Positions 1 to 12,814 of a DNA stretch of 64,000 nt are shown here, piece after piece. The notes below the pieces were generated by a model that saw nothing but the letters and a program-made list of their open reading frames with translations, searched no databases and was not told the DNA's origin. A program made the translations under genes and the position numbers. This DNA is from Escherichia phage BF17, in sequence record MW822008.1; one strand, written 5' to 3'. Each line of letters opens with the position of its first letter. Position 1 is the stretch's first letter.

Positions 1-364
1 AGTAGGCAGAGGAAGTCTGCCGTACTTTTTAGTTTCCAAGCTCCTTTTCCATTTTTCAAATTACATCAAATGTAATCAAAAGTAATCACGCAATGATTAG
101 TACTGAATTATTACTTTCACCTTAATTTCAATTACCCTTTTACCCGTCGGGGTAAAATTCAATTACCCCTTGAGGCTCCAGAAAAAAGTTGGTTAGTACT
201 CCATCCTAAATCTCGATCCTAAAAATTTTGGAGTACCTATGAAATAAAAGTTGGATCTTCGAAAGTTGAAATTTACGTTGGGACGTTTATGATTTGTGGG
301 ATATAATGATGTTTGTAGACGGGTAGTTCTCAAGAATATCAGTACTGAATAATGAAAGAAAGTT

Positions 365-393
365 ATTGACATTATGATTCAGTACTGTATAAT
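365..393 (+). promoter_or_regulatory. sigma70-like promoter in leader region (TTGACA-17-TATAAT)
   Basis: TTGACA 365-370, TATAAT 388-393, AGTACTG immediately upstream of -10. Confidence 0.5.
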
Positions 394-584
394 GTTCTAC
401 ATAGCTTCAAGGGTGATGAGTTGCTGCGAACAATTCATTTACTCTACCTCCTGTCGTGAGACAGTACAGAAAAGATAGTTCCTCCTGTGGTGGTACATCT
501 TTTTGAACCTCATATGAAAATCGTAATAACAGTACTGATATTAACAGAATGGTGTCAGTACTGATTTTAATCTAAAGCATTATG

Positions 585-604
585 CCACCAGCACAAGCTG
601 GTGG
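585..604. other. Inverted Chi pair CCACCAGC-acaa-GCTGGTGG
   Basis: CCACCAGC 585-592 and GCTGGTGG 597-604 read directly. Confidence 0.6.
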
Positions 605-729
605 ATTCCCTCTAACAGTATTCAGTACTACATGATAGTCTTCATCCTCCTAGGGTAACATAGTGAGGGCTATGATGGCAGTACTGAATACTCCCTTTCA
701 AAAGATAGATCTATGGTATAGTACTGACG

Positions 730-920
730 GATTTTGGGCGTAGTTACCCTGGATGGATTTTGGACGTAGATATGTCTAGCCCTCCAGAAGTCTGGAAGTA
801 AAGATGGCTATCCATCTAGACGGCTAAACGGCTAGATTTCTGGATGGCTAGATGGCTAGACGTTTGGACGGCTAAACGGCTAGATGGTTACACGTCTGGA
901 AGTATAGACGGCTAAATCAA
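730..920. repeat. Iteron-like short direct repeats (GGCTA[GA]A[TC]GG x8; GTCTGGAAGTA x2; GGATTTTGGRCGTAG x2)
   Basis: direct repeats visible at 731-770 and 790-915; candidate origin or packaging region. Confidence 0.65.
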
Positions 921-1085
921 AATTTTATTTTGTTTTTCCAATAGTTCCCCTACCGCGTGGGGATAGTTTCCCCGCAGTATCTGGAGTTAGATTTTTCTGA
1001 ATCTGGAATCATTATCTTATAAACTGGGGGCAATGTCAACGACCTGGACGGATATTTTTAAAAATTTTTTCAGTACTGAATTTTG

Positions 1086-1330
1086 GGCGTAACTATGCAC
1101 CCGGTGGGCTTGAGTCTTTCTCGACTTGATGGAACTATTATACAGTACTGAAAAAATAAAGCAATACCCTGGAAGCAAAAAAGTTTTAATTAATTTGCTT
1201 GCTATCCTGGGCCGGACTATGGTACTATATTTCAGTACTGAGAAAGTGCGTTTACCTGCTAGGGTGCGGGAGTGTATCCTTTTTTTATATCTTGAATTTT
1301 GGGCGTAATTTCGCACCCTCTGGGGTTTCC
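1086..1330. promoter_or_regulatory. Promoter-like sites with conserved downstream CCCACCGGGTGCATA-type elements in both orientations
   Basis: minus-strand TATAAT-like with element at about 1093-1108; plus-strand AGGGTGCGGGAGTGTATCC 1261-1280 then T-run; minus element about 1300-1320. Confidence 0.45.
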
Positions 1331-1673
1331 GCTTTCTCGCGTCTATGTAGTAATTATACGCTTTTTCAGGATCAAGTCAATACCTAAAAACAAAATAATT
1401 GAAAATAATTTAACGCGTTTAAACGGCCCGTAAAGCCCTGGAATGATTGGAATGGTGCAAATGTATAGCTTATGTGTATTAATGCGTTAGAATGCGTCTG
1501 AGGCCGTTTTACGGGGTATGGGGATGATTTGGTGGATTGATTCAGTACTGAATAATAGTACTACTATATAGAAAGATAGTTCCCCTGGATGGTTGCAGTA
1601 CTGAATGATAGTACTGAATAATAGTTCCCCTATATAGAAAGAAAACTATTTTAAAAGTATTTGTAGAAAGTAC

Positions 1674-1701
1674 TTGCAAACTAAGTTTAACGGCGTATAA
1701 T
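1674..1701 (+). promoter_or_regulatory. sigma70 promoter (TTGCAA-16-TATAAT) with 5' stem-loop
   Basis: TTGCAA 1674-1679, TATAAT 1696-1701; hairpin AGCGGGAAcactTTCCCGCT about 1714-1733. Confidence 0.7.
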
Positions 1702-1756
1702 GTTTTACATCGAGAGCGGGAACACTTCCCGCTACATATTACGAGAGATTAAAACG

Positions 1757-2119
1757 ATGGCGACTCAAATCACTAAAATTATTGCTAACCTGGTTAACTT
1801 TCGCGACGAGATGAAAGATCTTCCGGCAGAAACGGTAAAAATTCACATTTCAGCTTATCGGGAACTTATTGCAATGTTACCGCTTAAGCGTGAACAATAC
1901 GCCGCGACCGTGATGCTTGATGCGATGATCCATAAGATGATCGCCAGTGATTTAACGATGGTTTATCAGTATATGGGCGAAAATTTCGCGGTGTATAGTA
2001 AACCAGTACCAGGAATGGAAAGTACAGAAGTATTACACGGTTTAAATTTAAAACAAGATGCATGGGATAATATGCCTCGTTTCCTGGTATGGGCTGACAG
2101 TGGCAAAATTTACGAATAA
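1757..2119 (+). CDS. hypothetical protein (120 aa)
   Basis: internal ATG 1757 of ORF 1700; track start lies in promoter -10; promoter + stem-loop upstream. Confidence 0.7.
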   Translation: MATQITKIIANLVNFRDEMKDLPAETVKIHISAYRELIAMLPLKREQYAATVMLDAMIHKMIASDLTMVYQYMGENFAVYSKPVPGMESTEVLHGLNLKQDAWDNMPRFLVWADSGKIYE

Positions 2120-2133
2120 GTTTAATAAAGTAC

Positions 2134-2161
2134 TTGCAAACTAAGTTTAAAAGCGTATAAT
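2134..2161 (+). promoter_or_regulatory. sigma70 promoter with 5' stem-loop
   Basis: TTGCAA 2134-2139, TATAAT 2156-2161, hairpin GTGGGGAAtagtTCCCCAC 2173-2191. Confidence 0.7.
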
Positions 2162-2213
2162 ACTTTACATCAGGTGGGGAATAGTTCCCCACTATAATTA
2201 AGAGATTAATTTT

Positions 2214-2447
2214 ATGAGTACTATTTTAACTGTTTCTCAATCCGTTGCACTGACTGACCTATTAAACGCTTTAAGCCGTTGCACTGAGGTTGGCTTGTTT
2301 GATGTGGTTGACGTTGCACCGGACGTTATTAATCATTTTTGTGATGCGATGGAAGAATGTAAGGAAGATGATAGCCGTATGATGGCGGTCGCCTTTGAGG
2401 AAGTACAGCCGGGTGAGATCAAAGGTTTACCAGTACTGAAAAAATAG
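2214..2447 (+). CDS. hypothetical protein (77 aa)
   Basis: ORF track; promoter + stem-loop upstream; weak AAGAG RBS. Confidence 0.7.
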   Translation: MSTILTVSQSVALTDLLNALSRCTEVGLFDVVDVAPDVINHFCDAMEECKEDDSRMMAVAFEEVQPGEIKGLPVLKK

Positions 2448-2450
2448 TAC

Positions 2451-2478
2451 TTGCAAACTAAGTTTAAAAGCGTATAAT
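2451..2478 (+). promoter_or_regulatory. sigma70 promoter with 5' stem-loop
   Basis: TTGCAA 2451-2456, TATAAT 2473-2478. Confidence 0.7.
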
Positions 2479-2529
2479 ACTTTCTATCAGGTGGTGAATA
2501 GTTCCCCACTATATAAGAGGATTAAAAAA

Positions 2530-2769
2530 ATGGCTAAATCAAAAATGTTCTTAGGTCACAAAAACAAAACTCATTGGAATGTAAGCCTTTGGATTAATAA
2601 CGATGAGTCATTGTACCGGTTGGCCCAGGACTTTATTAATGATAGCACTAATCGCAATGATGCGGCCCGTCATATGATGCTATTTTTAGAACAGACTGGA
2701 CAAGATAAAACACCGGACGGATTCAAATATAGCACTACTGCGATCCGTGCGGCGATGGTTGGAATGTAA
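2530..2769 (+). CDS. hypothetical protein (79 aa); paralog of 4570..4809
   Basis: ATG 2530 with RBS AAGAGGA; shares HKNKT(H/Q)WNVSLWINN...TPDGFKYSTTAIRAAMVGM with 4570 gene. Confidence 0.75.
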   Translation: MAKSKMFLGHKNKTHWNVSLWINNDESLYRLAQDFINDSTNRNDAARHMMLFLEQTGQDKTPDGFKYSTTAIRAAMVGM

Positions 2770-2782
2770 TAGAATTTATTTA

Positions 2783-2819
2783 AAGTACTATCATTTTTTT
2801 GCGATAGTACTTTATAATA
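2783..2819 (+). promoter_or_regulatory. Promoter with palindromic operator-like site AAGTACTATC...GATAGTACTT
   Basis: inverted repeat 2783-2792 / 2803-2812 followed by TATAAT 2814-2819. Confidence 0.55.
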
Positions 2820-2855
2820 GTGTTTTATTCATACACCAACGATAAGGGTAACAGC

Positions 2856-3122
2856 ATGAATATTAAGTATTTTGCGACGCGTGAACAAGCTCGGATCGCC
2901 GCACGCCAGGACGGGGCAACGTTTAAAGATATGGGAGCGGGATCGGCAAGTGGTGAACGTTGGGCCATTGTAAAGCGTAGTACCGCCAGATCATTACAGT
3001 ACTGGTTAGCGGCGTTAAAAAGTCCCGATAGTGTATCGCGTCGAGTGGTAGAAATAAAGCTCGACCGAAAGGGCAACCGCGTGACCGTGTACCGTACTAA
3101 AAAGATTGCAGTACTTGAATAA
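2856..3122 (+). CDS. hypothetical protein (88 aa); paralog of 15228..15623
   Basis: ATG 2856; shares FATREQARIAAR...FKDMG...RKGNRVTVY with 15228 gene. Confidence 0.75.
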   Translation: MNIKYFATREQARIAARQDGATFKDMGAGSASGERWAIVKRSTARSLQYWLAALKSPDSVSRRVVEIKLDRKGNRVTVYRTKKIAVLE

Positions 3123-3129
3123 AAAGTAC

Positions 3130-3157
3130 TTGCAAACTATGTTTAATGGCGTATAAT
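3130..3157 (+). promoter_or_regulatory. sigma70 promoter with 5' stem-loop
   Basis: TTGCAA 3130-3135, TATAAT 3152-3157, hairpin AGCGGGAAcactTCCCGCC. Confidence 0.7.
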
Positions 3158-3209
3158 GTTTTACATCGAGAGCGGGAACACTTCCCGCCTATAACCTGGA
3201 GTAATAAAA

Positions 3210-3440
3210 ATGACTAATATGTATATGACTGAAGTTAAAACCGTAAAAGATACTACCACGAATAAAACTACTTACTTACAGCGGATCTGCGGTGTATGGC
3301 AACGTATCAGCAAATCAAAGTACTTTAAATTAACATCATATGCAAACCGTTCGGATTCATTCAGTACTGAAATAAAAGGTAATAAAGTACACCAATACGG
3401 CACTTATTATTATTATAGCCTGGACGCGATTGCAGTATAA
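3210..3440 (+). CDS. hypothetical protein (76 aa)
   Basis: ORF track; RBS GGAG 3198-3201. Confidence 0.7.
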   Translation: MTNMYMTEVKTVKDTTTNKTTYLQRICGVWQRISKSKYFKLTSYANRSDSFSTEIKGNKVHQYGTYYYYSLDAIAV

Positions 3441-3470
3441 GCAGTTTACAAATCTTTACAATTGCCGGTA

Positions 3471-3550
3471 TTGACTTATTTTGTCAGTACTGGCATAATG
3501 TATTCATTGGCAGATAAGCCGTAGCCCATAGGGTGCGGGAGTGTATCTAT
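3471..3550 (+). promoter_or_regulatory. Promoter (TTGACT-17-CATAAT) plus conserved transcribed element GCCCATAGGGTGCGGGAGTGTATC
   Basis: TTGACT 3471-3476, CATAAT 3494-3499, element about 3524-3550; no ORF downstream. Confidence 0.55.
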
Positions 3551-3563
3551 AGAAAAAGTAGTT

Positions 3564-3643
3564 TATTACAGTTACAATTGTGCACCCGGTGGGTTAGCTG
3601 TTGTCATGGGGTATATTATGCCAGTACTTGATAATGCTGTCAA
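3564..3643 (-). promoter_or_regulatory. Convergent minus-strand promoter (TTGACA-17-CATAAT) plus conserved element ACCCACCGGGTGCACAA
   Basis: minus-strand -35 at 3638-3643, -10 at 3615-3620, element about 3575-3595; faces the 3471 promoter. Confidence 0.55.
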
Positions 3644-3688
3644 TACTTTTTTTACTATTCAGTACTGAAAACTATTTTTAAAAAGTAC

Positions 3689-3716
3689 TTGCAAACTATG
3701 TTTAAAGGCGTATAAT
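3689..3716 (+). promoter_or_regulatory. sigma70 promoter P1 upstream of structured leader
   Basis: TTGCAA 3689-3694, TATAAT 3711-3716. Confidence 0.65.
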
Positions 3717-3721
3717 GTTTT

Positions 3722-3806
3722 ACATCAGGACGGGGAACGAAATAAGTAACTCCCCGTTAAGTAGCCCAGGAGTAAGGCACACGAAAAACTCCCCTGATAA
3801 AATAGT
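3722..3806 (+). ncRNA. Conserved structured leader / candidate small RNA between tandem promoters (copy 1)
   Basis: about 85% identical to 14031-14114; hairpin CGGGGA...TCCCCG with compensatory change in copy 2. Confidence 0.4.
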
Positions 3807-3834
3807 TTGACAAATGTTTTTAAAAGCGTATAAT
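3807..3834 (+). promoter_or_regulatory. sigma70 promoter P2 (TTGACA-16-TATAAT)
   Basis: TTGACA 3807-3812, TATAAT 3829-3834. Confidence 0.65.
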
Positions 3835-3866
3835 ACTTACATCAACTACTGAATGAGGGTTACAAA

Positions 3867-4478
3867 ATGAAAACTATCACTACTACTACTTTCGTTATGG
3901 ATTTTTCTGAATTGAACGCAGAACAAAAAACGTCAGCTATCGAACTGGTTCGGGAACGTGAAAAAAACTTAAACGATGATTATTTTTCTGAAAGTGAAAT
4001 TGAATACTATAAAGAAACAGTACTACCGGAATATGGCATTAATGACGCTGATTTACGTTTCAGTGGCTTTTGGTCCCAGGGTGACGGTGCATCAATCAGT
4101 ACTGACCACGTTGACGCAGTGAAGTTTTTACGCAAGGTAAGAGCATTAACTAAGTATCGCTCAATCCGTCACTTGCTGAATGAAGATGATTTGGCGATGA
4201 GTGTAAAGCGTTCTCACTCCCACTACTCGCATGAAAACACTGTAAGCGGGTACATTGAATCGGCTTACACTGATTTAACCGCAAAACAAGAAACGTTAGT
4301 TAATGAGCTTGAGGAACTACTCACTGAAACTATTCGTGAATTATCCCGCAAGTTGTACCGTGATTTAGAGAATGCATATGAGGATCAATTCACTACTGAA
4401 AACATTACGGCACTGATTGAGGGTAACGAATATCAATTCAATGTTATTGATGGCGTAGTAGAATCAATCGAATATTAA
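3867..4478 (+). CDS. hypothetical acidic protein (203 aa)
   Basis: ORF track; RBS GAGGG; largest module-1 ORF after the kinase-like gene. Confidence 0.75.
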   Translation: MKTITTTTFVMDFSELNAEQKTSAIELVREREKNLNDDYFSESEIEYYKETVLPEYGINDADLRFSGFWSQGDGASISTDHVDAVKFLRKVRALTKYRSIRHLLNEDDLAMSVKRSHSHYSHENTVSGYIESAYTDLTAKQETLVNELEELLTETIRELSRKLYRDLENAYEDQFTTENITALIEGNEYQFNVIDGVVESIEY

Positions 4479-4491
4479 TTTAAAAAAGTAC

Positions 4492-4519
4492 TTGCAAACT
4501 AAGTTTAAAAGCGTATAAT
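4492..4519 (+). promoter_or_regulatory. sigma70 promoter with 5' stem-loop
   Basis: TTGCAA 4492-4497, TATAAT 4514-4519, hairpin GCGGGGAgtggTTCCCCGC. Confidence 0.7.
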
Positions 4520-4569
4520 ACTTTATATCGAGGCGGGGAGTGGTTCCCCGCTCAAACGAGGATTTAAAA

Positions 4570-4809
4570 ATGGCTAGTTCTAAAACTTACAACGGGCACA
4601 AAAACAAAACTCAATGGAATGTAAGCCTTTGGATTAATAACGGTGAGTCATTGTATCGGCTTGCACAAAGTTGTATCGCACAAAGTAGAACTAAAGATAT
4701 TGCAGCGGAATGTATGTACCGCAGATTAAAAGCCAACGGTACTACTACAACGCCGGACGGTTTTAAGTATAGCACTACTGCGATCCGTGCTGCAATGGTT
4801 GGAATGTAA
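4570..4809 (+). CDS. hypothetical protein (79 aa); paralog of 2530..2769
   Basis: ATG 4570, RBS GAGGA. Confidence 0.75.
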   Translation: MASSKTYNGHKNKTQWNVSLWINNGESLYRLAQSCIAQSRTKDIAAECMYRRLKANGTTTTPDGFKYSTTAIRAAMVGM

Positions 4810-4866
4810 TATTCAGTACTGAGATAATGGCGGGTAATAGTTCCCGCCTTTACTGAGGGTTATCTA

Positions 4867-5127
4867 ATGAGTAAAGTAATAAAGTACAATGTGTTAAGCA
4901 AATCATTGTCTATCAGTGAATGCACCGATGGTTTTTGGATGTACGATGAAACGCGTGGCATGAATTTAGCTATGCGTGCAAAAACTGCTGAGGCGGCGTA
5001 TATTCAAGCACTGGAATACTACCAGGAACGTTTAAAGGAAGTAGAAGAAGATTATAAAAGCCTCAAAGCGAAAGTAGATCATTTCGTCGGTCAATTCATC
5101 GAGGAAGACGACGACAAACAATATTGA
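4867..5127 (+). CDS. hypothetical protein (86 aa)
   Basis: ORF track; RBS GAGGG; upstream stem-loop GGCGGGtaatagttCCCGCC. Confidence 0.7.
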   Translation: MSKVIKYNVLSKSLSISECTDGFWMYDETRGMNLAMRAKTAEAAYIQALEYYQERLKEVEEDYKSLKAKVDHFVGQFIEEDDDKQY

Positions 5128-5135
5128 AAAAGTAC

Positions 5136-5163
5136 TTGCAATTAGTTTTCAGTACTGTATAAT
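5136..5163 (+). promoter_or_regulatory. sigma70 promoter with 5' stem-loop
   Basis: TTGCAA 5136-5141, TATAAT 5158-5163, hairpin GGGAGAAatggTTCTCCC. Confidence 0.7.
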
Positions 5164-5213
5164 GGTTTACATCAAAGGGAGAAATGGTTCTCCCTGGTAA
5201 TGAGGAAAATAAA

Positions 5214-5435
5214 ATGGCTAATATCACTACTCTTTCCCAACTGGAAGCACTGGTTAAATCTATGCGGGAACATGCCGACAAAATCGGCGTACAAGATCCA
5301 GCCGTTTGCTTCTGCGACGAATTGAATGATGATACCCTGGTAATAGCAGAAGTCCAGGACGTTTCTAACTATTCATCGCGTTACACTGGCGGCGTAGCAA
5401 ATAAAGGTGACTTCTGTTTATACCTTACAAAATAA
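5214..5435 (+). CDS. hypothetical protein (73 aa)
   Basis: ATG 5214, RBS GAGG 5202-5205. Confidence 0.75.
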   Translation: MANITTLSQLEALVKSMREHADKIGVQDPAVCFCDELNDDTLVIAEVQDVSNYSSRYTGGVANKGDFCLYLTK

Positions 5436-5438
5436 CAA

Positions 5439-5471
5439 CGCGGGGAGATAATAACTCCCCGTTACTTTTTC
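5439..5471 (+). terminator. Rho-independent terminator
   Basis: hairpin CGGGGAGataataaCTCCCCG followed by T-run. Confidence 0.7.
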
Positions 5472-5502
5472 AGTACTGAATCATTTAATAGACGGATCTA
5501 TG

Positions 5503-5573
5503 CACCCGGTGGGTTAGTGACTGTTTCGTCTTGATGTAGTAATTATGCCAGTACTGGATGCACTTGTCAACAA
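5503..5573 (-). promoter_or_regulatory. Minus-strand promoter (TTGACA-17-CATAAT) plus conserved ACCCACCGGGTGCATAG element
   Basis: -35 at 5568-5573, -10 at 5545-5550, element about 5503-5518; no minus-strand ORF. Confidence 0.5.
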
Positions 5574-5603
5574 CTATTTTTCAAATACTTTTTATTAAAA
5601 TAC

Positions 5604-5631
5604 TTGCAATTAGTTTTTAAACGCGTATAAT
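5604..5631 (+). promoter_or_regulatory. sigma70 promoter with 5' stem-loop
   Basis: TTGCAA 5604-5609, TATAAT 5626-5631. Confidence 0.7.
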
Positions 5632-5678
5632 GTTTTGCATAGGGGGAGCGGTTCCCCTGGTAACTAAGGAATAATAAA

Positions 5679-5915
5679 ATGCTTGAACAAATCAAATCAA
5701 CGTCTTCGAATGTAACGGGAACGGTAGCACACTTTACTAGTGATGAATCGCGGGGCGTTCCCTATTGTGCTGTACATGTAAACACTGAGGGTAACTACTG
5801 GTTTACGGTTTACGGATCATATTCATTTGGACGGCCAGGGCATCAAAAAATTCTGGATAAAGTACAACCAACGGGTAAAAATATCACTGCTGAAATGTTT
5901 TATAAAAAATCATAA
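5679..5915 (+). CDS. hypothetical protein (78 aa)
   Basis: ORF track; RBS AAGGA. Confidence 0.75.
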   Translation: MLEQIKSTSSNVTGTVAHFTSDESRGVPYCAVHVNTEGNYWFTVYGSYSFGRPGHQKILDKVQPTGKNITAEMFYKKS

Positions 5916-5920
5916 AGTAC

Positions 5921-5948
5921 TTGATAATAGTTTTTAGTACTGTATAAT
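5921..5948 (+). promoter_or_regulatory. sigma70 promoter with 5' stem-loop
   Basis: TTGATA 5921-5926, TATAAT 5943-5948, hairpin GGGGGAGCGGTTCCCCC. Confidence 0.65.
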
Positions 5949-5999
5949 ATTTTACATCGCAAGGGGGAGCGGTTCCCCCTGGTAACTAAGGATAATCAA

Positions 6000-6299
6000 A
6001 TGAAAATTGCAATCATCGCCCTGGCTTTATCTGTTTCCTCTTTCGCTGTTAATGCGTCATTAGATGTAAGTAGTGAAAAATTCATTCAGTGCACTGTTGC
6101 AATGACCGATGAAAGTACTGGCGAGATTGTTTTAAAGGATTTAGAGATCCAGCCGGAAGCATTTAAAAACGGGCCGTTCCATGAAGAAGACGAAAAAGGT
6201 AGCACGACAATTTATTACGATGCAAGTACTAAACGCGGTTCGGTCACTGTTATGGATACTGAGAAAGTAACTCATACTGGCGTTATTAATTGCCGTTGA
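6000..6299 (+). CDS. secreted/periplasmic hypothetical protein (99 aa) with N-terminal signal peptide
   Basis: MKIAIIALALSVSSFAVNA-S: hydrophobic core plus AxA-like cleavage site. Confidence 0.75.
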   Translation: MKIAIIALALSVSSFAVNASLDVSSEKFIQCTVAMTDESTGEIVLKDLEIQPEAFKNGPFHEEDEKGSTTIYYDASTKRGSVTVMDTEKVTHTGVINCR

Positions 6300-6320
6300 T
6301 ATATACTACGGGGTAACATC

Positions 6321-6551
6321 ATGACTAAGCGAATTGTTTTACTTAACGAAAGCAGTACTACACAACTACTTAACGCCGTGCATTATGATATTGAAACGAG
6401 CGTTAATCTTATCAGTACTGTAGTACTGTTGGACACTGGAAAGGTCGCCAATGATAAAGCGATTGCAGGTATACTAACGGATCTTGAGCCTGGTAGCAGT
6501 GCATCAATAACGTTAAATGGTAAAGTGTTTAACATTTTACTTACTGATTAA
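6321..6551 (+). CDS. hypothetical protein (76 aa)
   Basis: ORF track; RBS GGGG; same operon as 6000 gene. Confidence 0.65.
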   Translation: MTKRIVLLNESSTTQLLNAVHYDIETSVNLISTVVLLDTGKVANDKAIAGILTDLEPGSSASITLNGKVFNILLTD

Positions 6552-6555
6552 GTAC

Positions 6556-6586
6556 ATAGCCCACCTGGTGGGCTTTTTTGTTTTTG
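6556..6586 (+). terminator. Rho-independent terminator
   Basis: hairpin AGCCCACCtGGTGGGCT then TTTTTTG. Confidence 0.7.
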
Positions 6587-6633
6587 TAGTATCGTAGTAC
6601 TGAGATACTTTGAAAATAGTTTTAAAAAAGTAG

Positions 6634-6661
6634 TTGACATTACCGCAGAAAAGCGTAGAAT
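6634..6661 (+). promoter_or_regulatory. sigma70-like promoter (TTGACA-16-TAGAAT) with long diverged leader
   Basis: TTGACA 6634-6639, TAGAAT 6656-6661; leader 6668-6770 related to the 3722/14031 leaders. Confidence 0.6.
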
Positions 6662-6784
6662 GTATTACATCAAGACGGGGAGCACTAAGTAGACCGCCAG
6701 TAAGTCGAACGAAAAACTGGACACGTCGAGAAAACTTTGATACACTAATAAACGTAAACTAAACTTTAATTGAGGATTTATAAA

Positions 6785-7267
6785 ATGGCTAATGTAAAAT
6801 CATTCATCAAAGCACTGGTAGCAAATGAAACTAACGTCGCGGCTGAGATCCTGGCTGAACTGGATAACGATACCATGAAAGCGGTACGCAATAATTTTAA
6901 CATCGCGTACAGTACTGCGAAAGAACTACAAGCAAATAAAGCGGCAGAAATTGAAGCGGCAAAGGCGGCCCGTGAAGCAGAACTACAAGCAACAATCGAA
7001 AGTATTCAGGCGGCAGTAGTTGGATTGGATCTGGAAGTAGTTACAGAGATGGCACAAAAAGCCCTGGCGGTTAAGTATGGGGAAGACAAGCCAGAAGTAA
7101 AAGCCAAAAAATGGATTCAGGAACGCGTAGCGGTAGTACTGGACAACGGGGAAGAATATCTGATTCCGGTGCGTGGTAACTGCATTGCGGTAGTACTGGA
7201 CGCGATTAACTCCAGTGGTATGACTCGCGAGGAATGGATCGAAGCTCATCGCAAAGTTGAAGCATAA
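6785..7267 (+). CDS. hypothetical protein (160 aa), Ala/Glu-rich helical N-terminal part
   Basis: ATG 6785 with RBS GAGG 6772-6775. Confidence 0.75.
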   Translation: MANVKSFIKALVANETNVAAEILAELDNDTMKAVRNNFNIAYSTAKELQANKAAEIEAAKAAREAELQATIESIQAAVVGLDLEVVTEMAQKALAVKYGEDKPEVKAKKWIQERVAVVLDNGEEYLIPVRGNCIAVVLDAINSSGMTREEWIEAHRKVEA

Positions 7268-7286
7268 CAATTAAAGTACTGAATCA

Positions 7287-7318
7287 CTAGCCCACTTATA
7301 CAGTGGGCTTTTTTGTGT
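7287..7318 (+). terminator. Rho-independent terminator
   Basis: hairpin AGCCCACTtatacAGTGGGCT then TTTTTTG. Confidence 0.75.
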
Positions 7319-7324
7319 TTATCG

Positions 7325-7440
7325 TTTACCAGGCCACCAGCACCGCCTAGAAACGATTCTAACGCATTAAACTGATTATCTGATGCATCACCCTAGCTGG
7401 TGGCGTTAAGGTCGTTAGAATGCGATTGAGTGCGTTTAAA
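7325..7440. repeat. Large imperfect palindrome with Chi octamers on both arms and TTAGAATGCG motifs
   Basis: CCACCAGC 7334-7341 and GCTGGTGG 7396-7403; ATTCTAACGCATT / CGTTAGAATGCG inside. Confidence 0.5.
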
Positions 7441-7468
7441 GTATTTTACAAAAAGTAATAAAAAGTAC

Positions 7469-7496
7469 TTGCACGATTAAGAGATTAGCGTATAAT
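7469..7496 (+). promoter_or_regulatory. sigma70 promoter with 5' stem-loop
   Basis: TTGCAC 7469-7474, TATAAT 7491-7496, hairpin GGGGGAAacggTTCTCC. Confidence 0.7.
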
Positions 7497-7551
7497 GTTT
7501 TACATCGAGAGGGGGAAACGGTTCTCCTTCCAAATCAAAGGAATCAAAACA

Positions 7552-7779
7552 ATGGCTATTATCATTACTCGCGTATCTGGTACTACTGGCAACGAACAAG
7601 TAGTTGCAGTCATTACCAACAAGGAAGGTGCGGAATTGCAAAATGCAATGAATACCTGGGCCGTTAATGAGTTCGGTCAGTGGGCAAGTGTAGCATACAT
7701 TGAAACCTATCAAGTGCCGTCGATTAGTTTAACTGATTTGGGCGTTGAGCGTATCCTTTGCCTTGATGAATTAAATTAA
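7552..7779 (+). CDS. hypothetical protein (75 aa)
   Basis: ATG 7552, RBS AGGA 7538-7541. Confidence 0.75.
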   Translation: MAIIITRVSGTTGNEQVVAVITNKEGAELQNAMNTWAVNEFGQWASVAYIETYQVPSISLTDLGVERILCLDELN

Positions 7780-7787
7780 AAAAGTAC

Positions 7788-7815
7788 TTGCAAAGTAAAT
7801 CGAATAAAGTATAAT
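7788..7815 (+). promoter_or_regulatory. sigma70 promoter with 5' stem-loop
   Basis: TTGCAA 7788-7793, TATAAT 7810-7815, hairpin GGGGAGAAaatgGTTCTCCCC. Confidence 0.7.
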
Positions 7816-7865
7816 ACATTACATCAAGGGGAGAAAATGGTTCTCCCCACTACAAGGAAACTAAA

Positions 7866-8009
7866 ATGAAAACTTGTCAATGTGGTCAGAAATCTATTAC
7901 GGGTTTAAAGCGGGGCGTTGCTCTTTGCCAGTACCATTATAATTTACAAGTATGGGGTAAAGAATGGGCCGACCAGGTGGAAGCAGCAAAGAAAGCAAAA
8001 AGTAAGTAA
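7866..8009 (+). CDS. small Cys-containing protein (47 aa; CQCG...CQYHY), below ORF-track cutoff
   Basis: translated by hand: MKTCQCGQKSITGLKRGVALCQYHYNLQVWGKEWADQVEAAKKAKSK; RBS AAGGAA; promoter upstream. Confidence 0.6.
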   Translation: MKTCQCGQKSITGLKRGVALCQYHYNLQVWGKEWADQVEAAKKAKSK

Positions 8010-8022
8010 AAATATTATCACA

Positions 8023-8057
8023 GTACTATTGACATAGTTTGATAGTACTGGCATAAT
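8023..8057 (+). promoter_or_regulatory. Palindromic promoter cassette AGTACTAT-TGACATAGTTTG-ATAGTACT (copy 1)
   Basis: TTGACA 8029-8034, CATAAT 8052-8057; about 60 nt (8007-8070) exactly repeated at 8299-8362. Confidence 0.7.
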
Positions 8058-8088
8058 AGATTTTATCAAGACGACTAAGGAAAACAAA

Positions 8089-8301
8089 ATGGCTATCATT
8101 ACAAAAATCAAAGTAAACAAATCACTGGTTAAACTTGAACAAGTGAAAGCAGGTTATAAAGTATCGTGGTGCGGTATGTATCGGATGTTCGCAGATATTG
8201 ATGAAGCGATCAATTATTACAGCGACACGGTTAAAAACTTTGTTCGTGCTGATGTGGTTATGGCAGTGGCAGCACATAAAGCAGCGAAAGAAAGTAAGTA
8301 A
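8089..8301 (+). CDS. hypothetical protein (70 aa); paralog of 11203..11382
   Basis: ORF track; RBS AAGGAA; MAII(T/A)K start shared with 11203 gene. Confidence 0.75.
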   Translation: MAIITKIKVNKSLVKLEQVKAGYKVSWCGMYRMFADIDEAINYYSDTVKNFVRADVVMAVAAHKAAKESK

Positions 8302-8314
8302 AAATATTATCACA

Positions 8315-8349
8315 GTACTATTGACATAGTTTGATAGTACTGGCATAAT
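8315..8349 (+). promoter_or_regulatory. Palindromic promoter cassette (copy 2, exact repeat of copy 1)
   Basis: TTGACA 8321-8326, CATAAT 8344-8349. Confidence 0.7.
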
Positions 8350-8390
8350 AGATTTTATCAAGACAACATATTAATTTAAGGAATACAAAA

Positions 8391-8714
8391 ATGGCTAAAA
8401 CTATCATTAACACCGTTTCCCTGGCTGCAATCCGTGCAATCAATGTTGACGGTAAACGTTGGACTGATTCATATGGCAATACTTATCATTCTTGTCATGT
8501 AAGCGTTGAACTGGATAACGGTTTGAATGATCTGGCGGTTGAATCATTTACTTATGGCTATGAAGATGCATATCAACAAACGGCGTTAGATCTCTTAAAG
8601 GAATCAGTAGACGGGCTTAATACTGATGAAACCTCCCTTACTCGTTTGTGCAATGATCTTAATATCCCGTTGCATTGTACTGTACAGAATGTTAAACGCA
8701 AAAAAGATCTTTAA
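8391..8714 (+). CDS. hypothetical protein (107 aa); paralog of 14809..15132
   Basis: shares RWTDS(Y/H)GNTYHSC(H/Y)VS and C-terminal RKKD(L/M) with 14809 gene. Confidence 0.75.
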   Translation: MAKTIINTVSLAAIRAINVDGKRWTDSYGNTYHSCHVSVELDNGLNDLAVESFTYGYEDAYQQTALDLLKESVDGLNTDETSLTRLCNDLNIPLHCTVQNVKRKKDL

Positions 8715-8794
8715 TTAGCTTTACTTTATGCAGATACTTTGATATAGTGTCTGCATAGGGGAAAGAAATTAAATTAACTTAAGAGGATCGTATA

Positions 8795-9064
8795 ATGAAA
8801 AATATCAGTACTTTAATCGATGCAGGTACACATGTTCGGCGGTCTATGGTTGCAACCAGTACTACAAAACAAGTAGCGAGCGGTTATCTTGTATTTGTGC
8901 ACGATGGTAAACTCCTGGAACGTTCAATCAATTTTGATGTTAAAAACAATTGCCGTTTTATTATCTTTAAGCGTGAACAATATAAAATTGATTTACCAGC
9001 GAAGCCCATAAGCGGGGCGTACAACGTGCAATCATTGTTTGAGCGTCAACCTTACACCTATTAA
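8795..9064 (+). CDS. hypothetical protein (89 aa)
   Basis: ORF track; strong RBS AAGAGGA; upstream inverted repeat ATGCAGATACT...AGTGTCTGCAT. Confidence 0.7.
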   Translation: MKNISTLIDAGTHVRRSMVATSTTKQVASGYLVFVHDGKLLERSINFDVKNNCRFIIFKREQYKIDLPAKPISGAYNVQSLFERQPYTY

Positions 9065-9115
9065 TCAAAACATCGTTAGCGGTCGTTTAAGGCCGCTTAT
9101 ATTGGGGATTATACC

Positions 9116-9388
9116 ATGAACGTTAATCAAGTACTGAATGAGATCGAAAGCATCATTAAACCGATGAAGCGTACTGATGCTATGTTAACACCGGAAGAAA
9201 GCCGCCTATATGAGCGTTACAGCGTCGAACAAGTCCAGGCAATGGCTATGGCTACGCCAGCCGTTAAACCGCCTGAGAATGCGTTACAGGACGTTACAGG
9301 GGATTATATCATTAATCCAGTACTAGGGAAGATGCCGCCAATCACCGAAGAACAAAAAGACTATTTGAGTCAGTACTTAAAAGGTTAA
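9116..9388 (+). CDS. hypothetical protein (90 aa)
   Basis: ORF track; RBS GGGG. Confidence 0.65.
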   Translation: MNVNQVLNEIESIIKPMKRTDAMLTPEESRLYERYSVEQVQAMAMATPAVKPPENALQDVTGDYIINPVLGKMPPITEEQKDYLSQYLKG

Positions 9389-9393
9389 TTAAT

Positions 9394-9603
9394 ATGCTTA
9401 CTGTACAGGATAAGATCGACATCTTAAAGGTTAATATGTATGTGATTGATGCCGTACCTGGTAAAGTATTTGCATACGATGATTCTAATCGCAGTCCTTT
9501 CTATTGTAGTCATGTAGTTGGATACGTGCCGTTGGCGTATGTTATCGAAAGAGTGGTTGATGCAGCATACAATCATTTTTTAGAAAATAATACTTGCAAT
9601 TAG
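9394..9603 (+). CDS. hypothetical protein (69 aa)
   Basis: ORF track; 5 nt after previous stop. Confidence 0.6.
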   Translation: MLTVQDKIDILKVNMYVIDAVPGKVFAYDDSNRSPFYCSHVVGYVPLAYVIERVVDAAYNHFLENNTCN

Positions 9604-9621
9604 TTTTTAAACGCGTATAAT
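9594..9621 (+). promoter_or_regulatory. sigma70 promoter with 5' stem-loop
   Basis: TTGCAA 9594-9599, TATAAT 9616-9621, hairpin GGGGAGAAatgaTTCTCCCC. Confidence 0.7.
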
Positions 9622-9672
9622 GTTTTACATGAAGGGGAGAAATGATTCTCCCCACTAATTAAGGAATATGAA

Positions 9673-9819
9673 ATGAAAGCATCAAAAAAGAGTAATACCA
9701 AGAAAGCATGTTCACCTTTCGCTGGGGTATTCCCTTTACGTTTCGTTGATGAAGTGGTTTCCTACCCGCTGGGCCTTACTCCTGAGATGGTAGAAAGTTT
9801 GCGTAAATCTAAAAAATAA
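9673..9819 (+). CDS. small basic protein (48 aa), below ORF-track cutoff
   Basis: hand-translated MKASKKSNTKKACSPFAGVFPLRFVDEVVSYPLGLTPEMVESLRKSKK; RBS AAGGAA. Confidence 0.55.
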   Translation: MKASKKSNTKKACSPFAGVFPLRFVDEVVSYPLGLTPEMVESLRKSKK

Positions 9820-9823
9820 TACT

Positions 9824-9850
9824 TGCAATTAGTTTTCAGTACTGTATAAT
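9824..9850 (+). promoter_or_regulatory. sigma70 promoter with 5' stem-loop
   Basis: TTGCAA 9824-9829, TATAAT 9845-9850. Confidence 0.7.
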
Positions 9851-9900
9851 AGTTTACATGAAGGGGAGAAATGATTCTCCCCAATAACAGGAGAAACAAA

Positions 9901-10053
9901 ATGAAACAATACAACGCTCGGTTTGATGTTACTATCGGCAACGGCAAAGGTCAATTCTCTTTCAGTACTCGCCGCAGTTATACAGAAAACTTCCTGCGAA
10001 ATTGTGCACTGACCGCCGCACAAATTAAACATTACTTCCAGGCTAAAAAATGA
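9901..10053 (+). CDS. hypothetical protein (50 aa)
   Basis: ATG 9901 with RBS CAGGAG; track start 9871 lies in leader. Confidence 0.6.
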   Translation: MKQYNARFDVTIGNGKGQFSFSTRRSYTENFLRNCALTAAQIKHYFQAKK

Positions 10054-10139
10054 AATCATTAGCTTATTACAGTTCGGCGGTGATCGGTGCATTGATCGCG
10101 GCATTGTTAGTAACCTATCTATTCTTTATGGTGATTTAA
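10050..10139 (+). CDS. tiny hydrophobic single-TM peptide (29 aa)
   Basis: ATGA overlap with upstream stop; MKSLAYYSSAVIGALIAALLVTYLFFMVI. Confidence 0.35.
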   Translation: MKSLAYYSSAVIGALIAALLVTYLFFMVI

Positions 10140-10259
10140 ATGAATCCTAACGGTTTAATTTACAGTACTACTAAAACGAAAGCAGATAAAGCGAAAGTAA
10201 AGGAGTACATTAAGCAAGGCATGACGCGAAAGGCGGCAGTACTGAAAGCTAAAAAATAA
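10140..10259 (+). CDS. small basic protein (39 aa)
   Basis: ATG adjacent to previous TAA; MNPNGLIYSTTKTKADKAKVKEYIKQGMTRKAAVLKAKK. Confidence 0.35.
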   Translation: MNPNGLIYSTTKTKADKAKVKEYIKQGMTRKAAVLKAKK

Positions 10260-10267
10260 ATGAAAAA

Positions 10268-10350
10268 AGTGGTTGACTTCGGTCAGCCATTTTGCTATTA
10301 TATATTCATTGAGAGATAGCTCACTAGCCCACCGGGTGCATAAGTGTATC
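10268..10350 (+). promoter_or_regulatory. Composite module: terminator-like hairpin overlapping promoter (TTGACT-17-TATTAT) plus conserved element GCCCACCGGGTGCATAAGTGTATC
   Basis: hairpin 10271-10288 with T-run; TTGACT 10273-10278; TATTAT 10296-10301; element 10327-10350. Confidence 0.55.
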
Positions 10351-10394
10351 TATTATATAAGTATTGAGTACTGAGAACTATTTTTAAAAAGTAC

Positions 10395-10422
10395 TTGCAA
10401 ACTATCTCAATTGGCGTATAAT
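10395..10422 (+). promoter_or_regulatory. sigma70 promoter with 5' stem-loop
   Basis: TTGCAA 10395-10400, TATAAT 10417-10422. Confidence 0.7.
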
Positions 10423-10473
10423 GTTTTACATCGAGAGGGGGAACGGTTTCCCCTGGTAATAAGGAAACGAATC

Positions 10474-10815
10474 ATGACTATCTCAATTGCTCAATCTAAC
10501 TTTGAAAATGAAATCATCGCCCAGGCACTGCGTTTAAATGATGGTCGGGCCGAAATTAATTACGGTTTCAATTCAGGCGGTTGTGAAAACTATCAGTACT
10601 TTGTAACTGCTGATGGCGGTGTCCTGGGCATCAATACCGTTATTGTAAACATTCAGAAAATTAATTTCAATGATCCAGACGATAGCCAGTTTTACATTGT
10701 AGGCGTAGACGTGAACTATGAGGATGACTCACTAACTGATGATCACACTGGCGAGAAGTTAGAAAGTGCATACGGTGAAGATGATTATCAGTCCGGTCCA
10801 GAAGATTTTGAATAA
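10474..10815 (+). CDS. hypothetical protein (113 aa), acidic C-terminus
   Basis: ATG 10474 with RBS AAGGAA. Confidence 0.75.
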   Translation: MTISIAQSNFENEIIAQALRLNDGRAEINYGFNSGGCENYQYFVTADGGVLGINTVIVNIQKINFNDPDDSQFYIVGVDVNYEDDSLTDDHTGEKLESAYGEDDYQSGPEDFE

Positions 10816-10828
10816 TATTAAAAAATAG

Positions 10829-10857
10829 TTTGACAATAGATTATAGTACTGTATAAT
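10829..10857 (+). promoter_or_regulatory. sigma70 promoter (TTGACA-17-TATAAT) with 5' stem-loop
   Basis: TTGACA 10829-10834, TATAAT 10852-10857. Confidence 0.7.
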
Positions 10858-10906
10858 AAGTTACATCAAGGGGAGAATAGTTCTCCCCACTAACAGAGAA
10901 AACAAA

Positions 10907-11119
10907 ATGGCTAATATCTGCACTGTACTGAAAAATGCAAAACAAGTTTTATTTTCTGACCACGATTATTTTAATAAAGATATTACAGGCGTTCGGAATA
11001 TCAAAGATGTAAAAAGTGTTATGGGTATCTATTGCAATATGAAACGTGTTGGAACGTTCGGCGACAAAGTACTATACCAGGCAGGGGATTACAATTTTAC
11101 ACTGACTATCATTAACTAA
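10907..11119 (+). CDS. hypothetical protein (70 aa)
   Basis: ORF track; RBS GAGAAAA. Confidence 0.7.
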   Translation: MANICTVLKNAKQVLFSDHDYFNKDITGVRNIKDVKSVMGIYCNMKRVGTFGDKVLYQAGDYNFTLTIIN

Positions 11120-11132
11120 AAATATTATCACA

Positions 11133-11167
11133 GTACTATTGACATAGTTTGATAGTACTGACATAAT
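11133..11167 (+). promoter_or_regulatory. Palindromic promoter cassette (copy 3)
   Basis: TTGACA 11139-11144, CATAAT 11162-11167, flanked by AGTACTAT / ATAGTACT. Confidence 0.7.
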
Positions 11168-11202
11168 AACTTTTATCAACTACACTACTAAGGAATTAAA
11201 AA

Positions 11203-11382
11203 ATGGCTATCATCGCAAAAACTGAAATCGTTGGTCTGGATTCTATCATCATGACGTTTGAAGATCAAAAAGGTATGTATGTAGTTTCATATGGTGATTA
11301 TGTTCGGGAGTATGAAACGGTAGACGAAGCCTTTGAAAGTTATATTCGCCAGGTGAATAAAGCATACGACGACTACCGCTAA
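11203..11382 (+). CDS. hypothetical protein (59 aa); paralog of 8089..8301
   Basis: hand-translated; RBS AAGGAA. Confidence 0.6.
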   Translation: MAIIAKTEIVGLDSIIMTFEDQKGMYVVSYGDYVREYETVDEAFESYIRQVNKAYDDYR

Positions 11383-11403
11383 AATATATTACCAGTACTA
11401 TTA

Positions 11404-11437
11404 AAGTTATTGACATAGTTTGATAGTACTGTATAAT
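11404..11437 (+). promoter_or_regulatory. Palindromic promoter cassette (copy 4)
   Basis: TTGACA 11410-11415, TATAAT 11432-11437. Confidence 0.7.
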
Positions 11438-11481
11438 AAGTTTTATAAACAGTAGTTAACTTAACCTAAGAGAGAAATAAA

Positions 11482-11625
11482 ATGATCGCACTGGATTCAT
11501 TCATCGACGCAGTACTGGCAAAAACTGGCGAGGATCTGACCGCAGAACAATACGCGATGATCGAGCAATGTCAGCAAAACGGTAAATCGGTGAAAGATAC
11601 TGTTAAGATTATCCGCAAGATGTAA
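11482..11625 (+). CDS. small protein (47 aa), below ORF-track cutoff
   Basis: hand-translated MIALDSFIDAVLAKTGEDLTAEQYAMIEQCQQNGKSVKDTVKIIRKM; RBS AGAGAAA. Confidence 0.55.
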   Translation: MIALDSFIDAVLAKTGEDLTAEQYAMIEQCQQNGKSVKDTVKIIRKM

Positions 11626-11631
11626 GATTAT

Positions 11632-11665
11632 AGCCCACTGGTTAACGCTGGTGGGCTTTAATCCT
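11632..11665 (+). terminator. Terminator-like hairpin containing a Chi octamer
   Basis: AGCCCAC...GTGGGCT stem; GCTGGTGG 11647-11654; weak T-run. Confidence 0.45.
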
Positions 11666-11730
11666 TTACCCTATACAATGTCAGTACTAAACCGTTTATC
11701 TCATTAGAATGCGTTACAGGACGTTTGACA

Positions 11731-11928
11731 ATGATTAGCATGAAATCAGTACAAAAACAAATAGAAACATTATCAAAAATTAAACGTAAACAGTACTCGT
11801 TAGAATATACAATCAATGGTAACTATCATCTAATGAAAGAGAATAATTTTATCGTCATTGATGAATCATTGCAAGTTATTAGTATAGTACTGAAAGCATT
11901 AATTAATGATAGAAAAAAATTAAAATAA
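11731..11928 (+). CDS. hypothetical protein (65 aa), AT-rich codon usage
   Basis: ATG 11731 (track start is TTG 11725); weak RBS; no promoter seen. Confidence 0.4.
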   Translation: MISMKSVQKQIETLSKIKRKQYSLEYTINGNYHLMKENNFIVIDESLQVISIVLKALINDRKKLK

Positions 11929-11932
11929 TCTA

Positions 11933-12013
11933 TTGACAATATCCTCCAGTACTGGCATAATACTTACATCAAGACGAGAACGTCACTAACCCATAGGGTG
12001 CACAAATGTAACT
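11933..12013 (+). promoter_or_regulatory. Promoter (TTGACA-17-CATAAT) plus conserved element ACCCATAGGGTGCACAAATGTAAC
   Basis: TTGACA 11933-11938, CATAAT 11956-11961, element 11988-12013. Confidence 0.55.
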
Positions 12014-12020
12014 GTATAAT

Positions 12021-12057
12021 ATTGATCAAAAAATGATCTGATCAATACTTGATCAAT
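12021..12057. promoter_or_regulatory. GATC cluster: 4 GATC sites in 31 bp, three as TGATCAA
   Basis: GATC at 12024, 12035, 12040, 12051 within the leader upstream of the TraR-like gene. Confidence 0.6.
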
Positions 12058-12259
12058 TTGCGTAAAGTAGTATAATTCTATGCAGTTGGTTAGACGAAAG
12101 GTTATGATTAGTAGTGCAAGTGTATAAAAATTTTCATGGTGTATCGTTCCGCACATATGGCAATGAATATGTGGTATCATGTGGATTGGAAAAAGTAAGA
12201 ACAAGTAATATTATTGTCGCATTACAGTACTATAGTATTTTTATAATGAGGTTAAAATA

Positions 12260-12517: not shown

Positions 12518-12523
12518 AAAGTA

Positions 12524-12787: not shown

Positions 12788-12814
12788 TATTAATTTAATA
12801 GAGGATAACAATAA

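Follow-up and report, generated by a model that had tools for sequence, protein, structure and literature searches.

Two genes in the early region of Escherichia phage BF17 are each preceded by the same arrangement, in which a promoter (P1), a leader of about 80 nt, a second promoter (P2), and a ribosome-binding site (RBS) follow one another (3689-3869 and 13999-14178 of the 64,000-nt stretch that we analyzed, hereafter the window). This raises the question of what the leader is: a regulator of the gene behind it, a piece of promoter DNA, a site of recombination, or an RNA with a role of its own. The reading that we favor, as probable but not assured, is that the leader is a structured RNA module, conserved and passed horizontally between phages, which forms the 5' end of immediate-early transcripts and probably binds a host factor. 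Sequence comparison makes us confident in one part of this reading, namely that the module is very probably a real conserved structured element, homologous to the A1-A2 element of phage T7 and mobile via promoter recombination. That it acts as a host-factor-binding RNA is a more tentative proposition, which we consider quite possible.

Two leaders between tandem promoters and a diverged third copy

All features of the three copies described here are on the plus strand. In copy 1, P1 was identified by a consensus scan at 3689-3716 (TTGCAA-16 nt-TATAAT, with an A-rich stretch upstream). It belongs to a set of at least 24 near-identical early promoters between 1 and 20 kb, and its transcript would start near A3722. 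The leader module extends from 3722 to 3798, as delimited by sequence, folds, covariation, and the match to a covariance model of T7-like sequences described below. It comprises a closing helix (AUCAGG 3724-3729 with CCUGAU 3793-3798), hairpin 1 (ACGGGGA 3730-3736 with UCCCCGU 3751-3757), the conserved linker UAAGUAG (3758-3764), hairpin 2, which we call hairpin B (GGAG 3769-3772 with CUCC 3789-3792, loop UAAGGCACACGAAAAA), and a tentative pseudoknot (GCC 3764-3766 with GGC 3776-3778). P2 (3807-3834, TTGACA-16 nt-TATAAT) matches the consensus at 12 of 12 positions, and its predicted transcript lacks a 5' hairpin. The gene that follows (3867-4478; Shine-Dalgarno (SD) sequence GAGGG, 3855-3859) encodes a 203-aa protein of phrog_5162, to which no function is assigned.

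Copy 2 has the same layout, with P1 at 13999-14026 (TTGCAT-16 nt-TATAAT), the module at 14032-14106, delimited by sequence, folds, and the match to the same model, and P2 at 14115-14142 (TTGACA-16 nt-TATAAT, again 12/12). Within the module we find the closing helix (14034-14039 with 14101-14106), hairpin 1 (ACGGGG 14040-14045 with CCCCGU 14060-14065), the linker UAAGUAG (14066-14072), and hairpin B (GGAG 14077-14080 with CUCC 14097-14100); the gene behind it (14176-14451) encodes 91 aa (phrog_14947, function not assigned). The promoters thus bear out the duplicated arrangement reported in a preliminary description of the locus, as does a 22-nt probe from the leader start, which has exactly two sites in the window, copies 1 and 2, versus 0 expected by chance. 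The leaders (3722-3806 and 14032-14114) are near-identical, as had been described, but at 90% (74/82 columns) and not about 85%. A difference in hairpin 1 had been taken for a compensatory change, but is a single one-sided indel that removes one A-U pair: both copies share the 5' arm ACGGGGA, and copy 2 only lacks two nucleotides (TC) beside the 3' arm.

The SD and ATG of both genes (3867 and 14176) come after P2. On inspection, neither 3722-3806 nor the leader of copy 2 contains an ATG or GTG, which rules out a small ORF in 3722-3806. No terminator-like hairpin followed by a T-run is present in or after the leaders of copies 1 and 2, whose stems lead into UAAGUAG or AUAAAAUAG instead of a T-run.

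The diverged third copy that had been suspected in this region is real, and lies at 6667-6741 behind a P1 at 6634-6661 (TTGACA-16 nt-TAGAAT). It aligns to copies 1 and 2 via UAAGUAG...AGUAAG...ACGAAAAAC, with CCAG...CUGG replacing GGAG...CUCC. It has no separate hairpin 1, its ACGG arm pairing 3' of hairpin B rather than forming a hairpin of its own. The predicted elements are UAAGUAG (6686-6692), hairpin B (CCAG 6697-6700 with CUGG 6717-6720), and two enclosing helices (GACG 6674-6677 with CGUC 6724-6727, and AUCAAG 6669-6674 with CUUUGAU 6735-6741). Downstream, inspection of the sequence reveals only a weak P2-like site (TTGATA-17-TAAACT). The gene behind copy 3 (6785-7267, 160 aa, phrog_27871) has orthologs behind the module in phages Munch and Hallingskeid. 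The RBS region 5' of ATG 6785 (AAACUUUAAUUGAGGAUUUAUAAAAUG, window 6755-6787) is closely similar to the T7 gene 10 leader and 'epsilon' enhancer region, as is its counterpart in Munch (AAACUUUAAGAGGAAAUAUACAAUG, about 3130-3160 of the Munch locus).

Promoters and hairpins of the early region

The window is the early, terminal-repeat region of a jumbo coliphage of the genus Asteriusvirus (PBECO4/121Q-like). The surroundings of the leaders are 93-99% identical to other PBECO4/121Q-type phages of this genus, and in the Asteriusvirus records that annotate repeats the matching positions lie inside the long direct terminal repeat. The terminal repeat of phage Sharanji has a measured length of 20.7 kb (Sharanji paper); that paper mentions neither promoters nor hairpins.

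The first ~20 kb of the window contain at least 24 near-identical sigma70-type promoters (AAAAAGTACTTGCA-N17-TATAAT), whose predicted transcripts begin with ACAUC(R)AG and form a G-run/C-run hairpin of 7-9 bp (dG -10 to -16 kcal/mol) from about +8 on; an SD and then a small ORF come next. Examples of such promoter and hairpin cassettes are at 1674-1730, 2134-2190, 5136-5190, 7788-7845, and 18126-18180. The stems of these hairpins vary from copy to copy with complementarity kept, and the initial transcribed sequence of the cassettes, AUCGAGAGGG, is similar to that of T7 A1. To weigh RNA against DNA structure, sense and antisense folding were compared for this wider family of 5' hairpins, and the asymmetry proved weak (p = 0.047, with a biased filter applied beforehand). 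Taken as a whole, positions 1-20000 have an architecture of cassettes like the promoter-early stem-loops (PeSLs) discussed below, here in a jumbo phage, and these cassettes recur with their small genes (DUF7249, MAKSKMFLGHKNK...) in Justusliebigvirus.

A minority of the early promoters give 5' ends without a hairpin, namely the P2 promoters (start CAUCAAC) and a 'UUAUCAAGAC' class (3807-3834, 14115-14142, 8029-8057, 8321-8349, 11139-11167, and 11410-11437), so that the 5' ends of early transcripts fall into two classes. We also observe a motif, CCCAYAGGGTGC / CCCACCGGGTGC, which occurs 10 times on either strand in the first 20 kb, versus 0.2 expected (3525-3536, 13929-13940, 11990-12001, 17202-17213, 19164-19175, and five more). 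Each focal P1 has one such motif upstream, followed by a shared ...AATGTATCTAT stretch. Terminator-like hairpins are found just 5' of promoter clusters at 13872-13899, where the stem includes a -35-like hexamer (TTGACT), and at 6556-6580.

Homologs of the leader in T7-like and other phages

BLAST searches with copy 3 and with the version found in rV5-like phages matched T7-like phages at about nt 550-600. In the loci inspected, the T7-like core lies directly after the first host-polymerase promoter and directly before the second, and consists of a short hairpin, (U/A)UAAGUAGACAG, and then CCUG-(A)UAAGUC..ACGAAAAA-CAGG. The EcoDS1 element, for example (394-455 of its locus), is placed between the first two annotated host-RNAP promoters. 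A 69-nt T7 query detected the element in 491 Autographiviridae records, including T7, T3, phiYeO3-12, Kayfunavirus, Drulisvirus KpV71, GAP227, and Aeromonas T7-like phages. The core spans Studiervirinae, Slopekvirinae, and Melnykvirinae, as well as several myovirus lineages.

We built a covariance model from 12 T7-like sequences only and ran it over the 64 kb of the window, on both strands with filters off. Its top three hits were the three leaders, the rest being noise. Copy 3 gave the best hit (6673-6725, 27.2 bits, E 1e-4), followed by copy 1 (3728-3797, 14.9 bits, E 0.11) and copy 2 (14048-14105, 12.5 bits, E 0.44). Applied to 26 phage loci, this T7-only model recovered all copies, every myovirus copy included, and gave no hit in the two leader-less relatives (loci L242 and L243).

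Outside Autographiviridae the spread is sporadic. The core is present in other Rak2-like jumbo phages (Munch, Hallingskeid, and one IMG/VR contig), in a few Vequintavirinae, which are rV5-like (A7_1, A5-4, A73, W70, LTH01, and UPEC06), and in a few Justusliebigvirus, which are phAPEC8-like (outra, muut, and EmilieFrey). Exact-pattern scans of IMG/VR returned 2 loci each, both known phages. A loose 17-base pattern matched metagenome and genome contigs mostly by chance, leaving about 20 true phage copies after a stem filter; its matches in bacterial genomes were chance, except for one T7-like copy in a metagenome bin (L178).

A host-derived or host-mimicking RNA was considered and rejected, as a search of 5,426 complete E. 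coli genomes (E up to 10), which short mimicry would escape, gave no match to the 49-nt core. Rfam gave 0 hits over the window at the gathering threshold, chance-level hits only around copy 1 at E up to 10, and no hits over the element in phiA1122, T3, and LTH01, that is, in T7-like and rV5-like loci. No description of the element as an RNA motif was found in Rfam or in the searchable literature, which does not extend to old subscription T7 papers, and in the literature on the T7 A1-A3 leader we met the promoters only as templates.

Conserved pairing in the leader RNA

The leaders of copies 1 and 2 fold better than shuffled sequences (z = -3.0 and -2.4). The two hairpins of the preliminary description are present, but the minimum free energy (MFE) structure is a three-way junction and not a pair of free hairpins: hairpin 1 (ACGGGG(A)/(U)CCCCGU) and hairpin 2 (GGAG/CUCC) both lie within the closing helix AUCAGG/CCUGAU. 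The same junction is predicted for the single sequences and for an alignment of 11 close relatives. Among these relatives, variation avoids the paired columns, of which 3/32 vary, versus 21/45 of the unpaired ones (p = 0.0005). The sole substitution at a paired column changes G-C to a G.U wobble in 121Q, and the other departures are differences in the length of homopolymer runs in CMSTMSU and muut. In the muut leader (2506-2586 of the muut locus), the 5' arm of hairpin 1 is longer by one G (ACGGGGG) and CUCCCCCUG by one C; these could be paired homopolymer changes that hint at alternative G-run/C-run pairing, or could reflect sequencing slippage. There is no covariation within the GGAG subfamily, and its closing helix is a predicted element whose support consists of invariance and folding energy.

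Covariation appears when distant homologs are compared. Depending on the phage, hairpin B is found as GGAG/CUCC, CCAG/CUGG, CCUG/CAGG, or CUUG/CAAG, preceded by UAAGUAG and with the conserved loop (A)UAAGNC..ACGAAAAA. In 25 distinct sequences, paralogs and homologs together, the four core pairs are 100% paired and three of the four covary (CG/GC; CG/GC/UA; UA/AU), giving a covariation score that was reached by 0 of 500 shuffles. Sliding the partner columns leaves 15-47% paired, versus 93-95% for the proposed structure. Hairpin A is likewise 100% paired in the 12 T7-like sequences, with covariation at 3/4 pairs, one of which occurs in four types (GC, AU, CG, and UA). These counts stem from few independent compensatory events, about 4 in hairpin B, 4-5 in hairpin A, and ~2 in the pseudoknot pair introduced next.

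The base after UAAGUAG is complementary to the base after the second UAAG in 24/25 sequences (A:U in 18, C:G in 3, U:A in 3, and one C:A), and each side of this putative pair is flanked by an invariant G and C, which suggests a 3-bp helix across hairpin B. This pseudoknot is only tentative because about two events lie behind it. Copies of the myovirus type have an extra helix joining the RNA start to the segment just after hairpin B, in a form that differs by lineage (GACG/CGUC, GACGG/CCGUC, CGGC/GCCG, or GCGGC/GUCGC). In addition, ~25 unpaired loop and linker nucleotides are strictly conserved across phages.

The covariation in hairpin B and the avoidance of paired columns uphold the earlier proposal of selection on the structure of the leader RNA. 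Stem-breaking mutations without compensation, which the preliminary description had named as evidence to the contrary, were looked for in the homologs; no stem-breaking substitution was seen, only the wobble and run-length departures above, so the proposal stands on this point.

Probable transfer of the module by recombination within promoters

Two leader-less relatives of the Justusliebigvirus phage outra, VivaForever and phiWec187, have a single promoter (TTGACA-N15-ATATAAT) at the position of the module. Compared with them, outra and muut have 116 extra nt. These begin at the -10 box of P1, take in the leader, and stop where the P2 spacer ends, so that the inserted unit is "-10, leader, -35, spacer". 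From this comparison, the resident promoter appears to have been split in two by recombination inside promoter sequence. Such an insertion would account for the tandem promoters, and for the module lying nearly always between them and before unrelated genes. There are further signs of cassette exchange. In each family, the promoters on either side of the module are of the type that the resident phage has elsewhere.

In a clade of Vequintavirinae (A7_1, LTH01, A73, and UPEC06), the same locus holds either a GGAG-type or a CUUG-type variant, behind a shared conserved upstream gene and before differing downstream genes. To judge from these sequences, this site looks like a hotspot of cassette replacement. 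The genes 3' of the module are unrelated between phages, and a tie to a particular downstream gene family was rejected for this reason; the muut leader, in another sign of exchange, precedes the same 91-aa gene as that at 14176 in the window.

Possible function of the module

We propose that, with the start given above, transcription by the host RNA polymerase from P1 opens with the module, which would make up the first ~75 nt of the transcript. Its core consists of a hairpin, a single-stranded UAAGUAGNC, and another hairpin, whose stem of 4-5 bp carries a loop of 16-17 nt, (A)UAAGN'C..ACGAAAAA; pairing of G-N-C with G-N'-C may form a small pseudoknot; in the subfamily of the window, the helix AUCAGG/CCUGAU would join the 5' and 3' ends of the module. 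Transfer very probably occurs by recombination within the flanking near-consensus sigma70 promoters, between unrelated phages of E. coli and, more broadly, virulent enterobacterial phages. The module would function as RNA and not as a regulator of its particular downstream gene, its strictly conserved loops most likely binding a host factor that is conserved across Enterobacterales. Pairing has been kept, together with ~25 conserved unpaired nucleotides, in phages that share the RNAP but few proteins, and we therefore infer that a host component recognizes the RNA. Binding might act on the carrier polymerase or transcript, or else the module might be an abundant immediate-early decoy RNA.

Regulation of the downstream gene, with hairpin 2 sequestering an SD-like sequence or the leader acting as an attenuator, seems very improbable to us. 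CAGGAG and CUCCCCUG do occur in copies 1 and 2, as the preliminary description pointed out, but this SD-like sequence is specific to the subfamily, homologs having CCUG, CCAG, or CUUG in its place, and the proposed sequestration finds no support. In one MFE fold the linker of copy 1 (GUAGCCC) pairs with the true SD region, yet copy 2 shows no such long-range pairing, and the extended folds do not reach significance (z = -2.0 and -1.2). Since, moreover, the downstream genes are unrelated, the leader has no start codon, the true SD is downstream of P2, and a terminator-like hairpin with a T-run is missing, the comparative data largely refute both variants. A generic protection of the 5' end, by which an elaborate hairpin would shield P1 transcripts from 5'-end-dependent decay, is in line with the position of hairpin 1. 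Counting from A3722, the predicted start, the closing helix would begin at +3, where it would tuck in the 5' end, and hairpin 1 at about +8 to +9, close to the place of the 7-9 bp hairpins behind 24 other promoters, with which it shares an ACGGGG-type 5' arm. A stabilizer requires only a stem, however, so that the conservation of UAAGUAG and (A)UAAGNC..ACGAAAAA is left unexplained, and transcripts of the same gene from P2 have no hairpin at all. In T7, cleavage at the RNase III site R0.3 upstream of gene 0.3 separates the leader from the gene 0.3 mRNA, which the leader then could not protect; a simple role in mRNA stability is thus disfavored there, leaving co-transcriptional action or a released abundant early RNA. 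We therefore regard general protection as unlikely.

The remaining alternatives place the function in the DNA. If the module were upstream DNA of P2 or A2 (an A-tract UP element, a wrapped or curved segment, or a spacer between two polymerases), its RNA would be incidental. A second promoter does follow the module in almost every case, and in T7-like phages the ACGAAAAAC of the loop ends 6 nt before the -35 of A2, at the position of a UP element. The A-rich loop could at the same time be promoter DNA upstream of P2, and it may contribute to P2 in the T7-like phages. A purely promoter-based role is nevertheless weak, because the spacing between hairpin B and the following -35 varies between 2 and 42 nt, without fixed phasing, and because copy 3 retains the motif although the P2-like site after it is weak. 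Nor would a protein-binding or curvature element be expected to undergo the complementary double substitutions seen in two stems, and the insertion mechanism already accounts for the tandem promoters; we hold this explanation to be rather improbable. We give similarly little credence to a pure recombination cassette, in which promoter-flanked stem-loop DNA would spread as a hotspot of homologous exchange through hairpins in single-stranded DNA and the RNA would be functionless. The insertion boundaries inside promoters, the allelic replacement at one Vequintavirinae locus, and the sporadic occurrence in two phage subfamilies are in line with it, as is the composition of the whole 1-20 kb from promoter and G-run/C-run hairpin cassettes, as in the PeSLs of T4-type phages (PMC2839356). 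But recombination needs promoter homology only, which leaves at least 25 conserved loop and linker nucleotides unexplained, together with the pairing kept through different stem sequences.

A structured RNA recognized by the host thus remains the reading that we prefer. We see no obvious processing site or terminator after the module, and a discrete small RNA is therefore only a possibility. A bolder version, which we regard as speculative and somewhat unlikely, is that the module is a pseudoknotted aptamer, representing a new class of phage immediate-early non-coding RNA, made abundantly from the strongest early promoters of T7-like, jumbo, rV5-like, and phAPEC8-like phages to capture or disarm a conserved host factor, e.g. 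a component of RNA decay, transcription termination, or defense. The aptamer would then have spread between unrelated phages as a promoter-bounded cassette, like anti-defense genes.

Relation to known systems

T7 is among the best-studied phages, yet neither a function nor an Rfam family turned up for its A1-A2 stretch, and the searchable literature yielded no description of it. The stretch bears an RNA fold supported by covariation, conserved in at least three subfamilies of Autographiviridae and exchanged between this family and jumbo and mid-sized myoviruses. This conservation points to an unrecognized function in the first minute of infection. The insertion that splits a promoter offers a concrete route to tandem early promoters, and shows how non-coding modules may cross between phages that share only host-type promoters. 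It also widens the PeSL idea beyond T4-like phages, as the module is common to podoviruses and several myovirus groups.

The nearest relative of the window module is the A1-A2 region of T7-like phages (about nt 534-602 in T7; also T3, phiA1122, phiYeO3-12, Kayfunavirus, Drulisvirus, and GAP227). Both have a hairpin, (U/A)UAAGUAGAC, and a hairpin with the loop (A)UAAGUC..ACGAAAAA, in sense orientation, with a strong early or host-type promoter before them and another after. The hairpin immediately 5' of UAAGUAG is present in window copies 1 and 2 (ending at 3757 and 14065) but not in copy 3. The T7-like phages have one copy, which is preceded by about 55 nt of additional leader and whose CCUG/CAGG stem abuts the -35 of A2, whereas the window has three copies, with GGAG/CUCC or CCAG/CUGG stems, 19-38 nt from the start, and closing helices specific to the lineage.

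Among structured leaders, the put antitermination RNAs of phage HK022 are promoter-proximal, about 70 nt long, formed by two stem-loops, and made by host polymerase at the start of an early operon. The layout of the module is similar, with two stem-loops close to the promoter in ~70 nt. The action of a put RNA is confined to the polymerase that transcribed it, and an action of this type would not cover polymerases starting at P2; no sequence similarity between put RNAs and the window module is known. Another small pseudoknotted 5' structure, that of the T4 gene 32 mRNA, is autoregulatory, gene-specific, and bound by a phage protein. The module resembles it as a 5' leader structure and possible protein-binding site, but the genes behind it are unrelated to one another, and the phages that have it lack a common protein of this kind.

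The closest parallel for its mobility is given by the PeSL cassettes of T4-type phages, which are recombination sites that shuffle modules between phages and whose stem-loops, variably positioned around the promoter, were shown to be terminators or attenuators (PMC2839356, PMC4122927). As with PeSLs, we observe a strong sigma70-like early promoter, AT-rich upstream DNA, and an adjacent G-run/C-run stem-loop, placed before small ORFans in a plastic region. Insertion and replacement of the PeSL kind are indicated here by comparison alone, from the 116-nt indel within promoters and the variant swap at one locus. Unlike PeSLs, the structure in the window lies inside the transcript and has no T-run, so it does not qualify as a terminator or attenuator, and it has a long sequence-conserved core of two hairpins that is common to unrelated phage families, including podoviruses. 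The module is akin to two known kinds of elements, the mobile promoter/stem-loop regulatory cassettes and the structured phage leaders.
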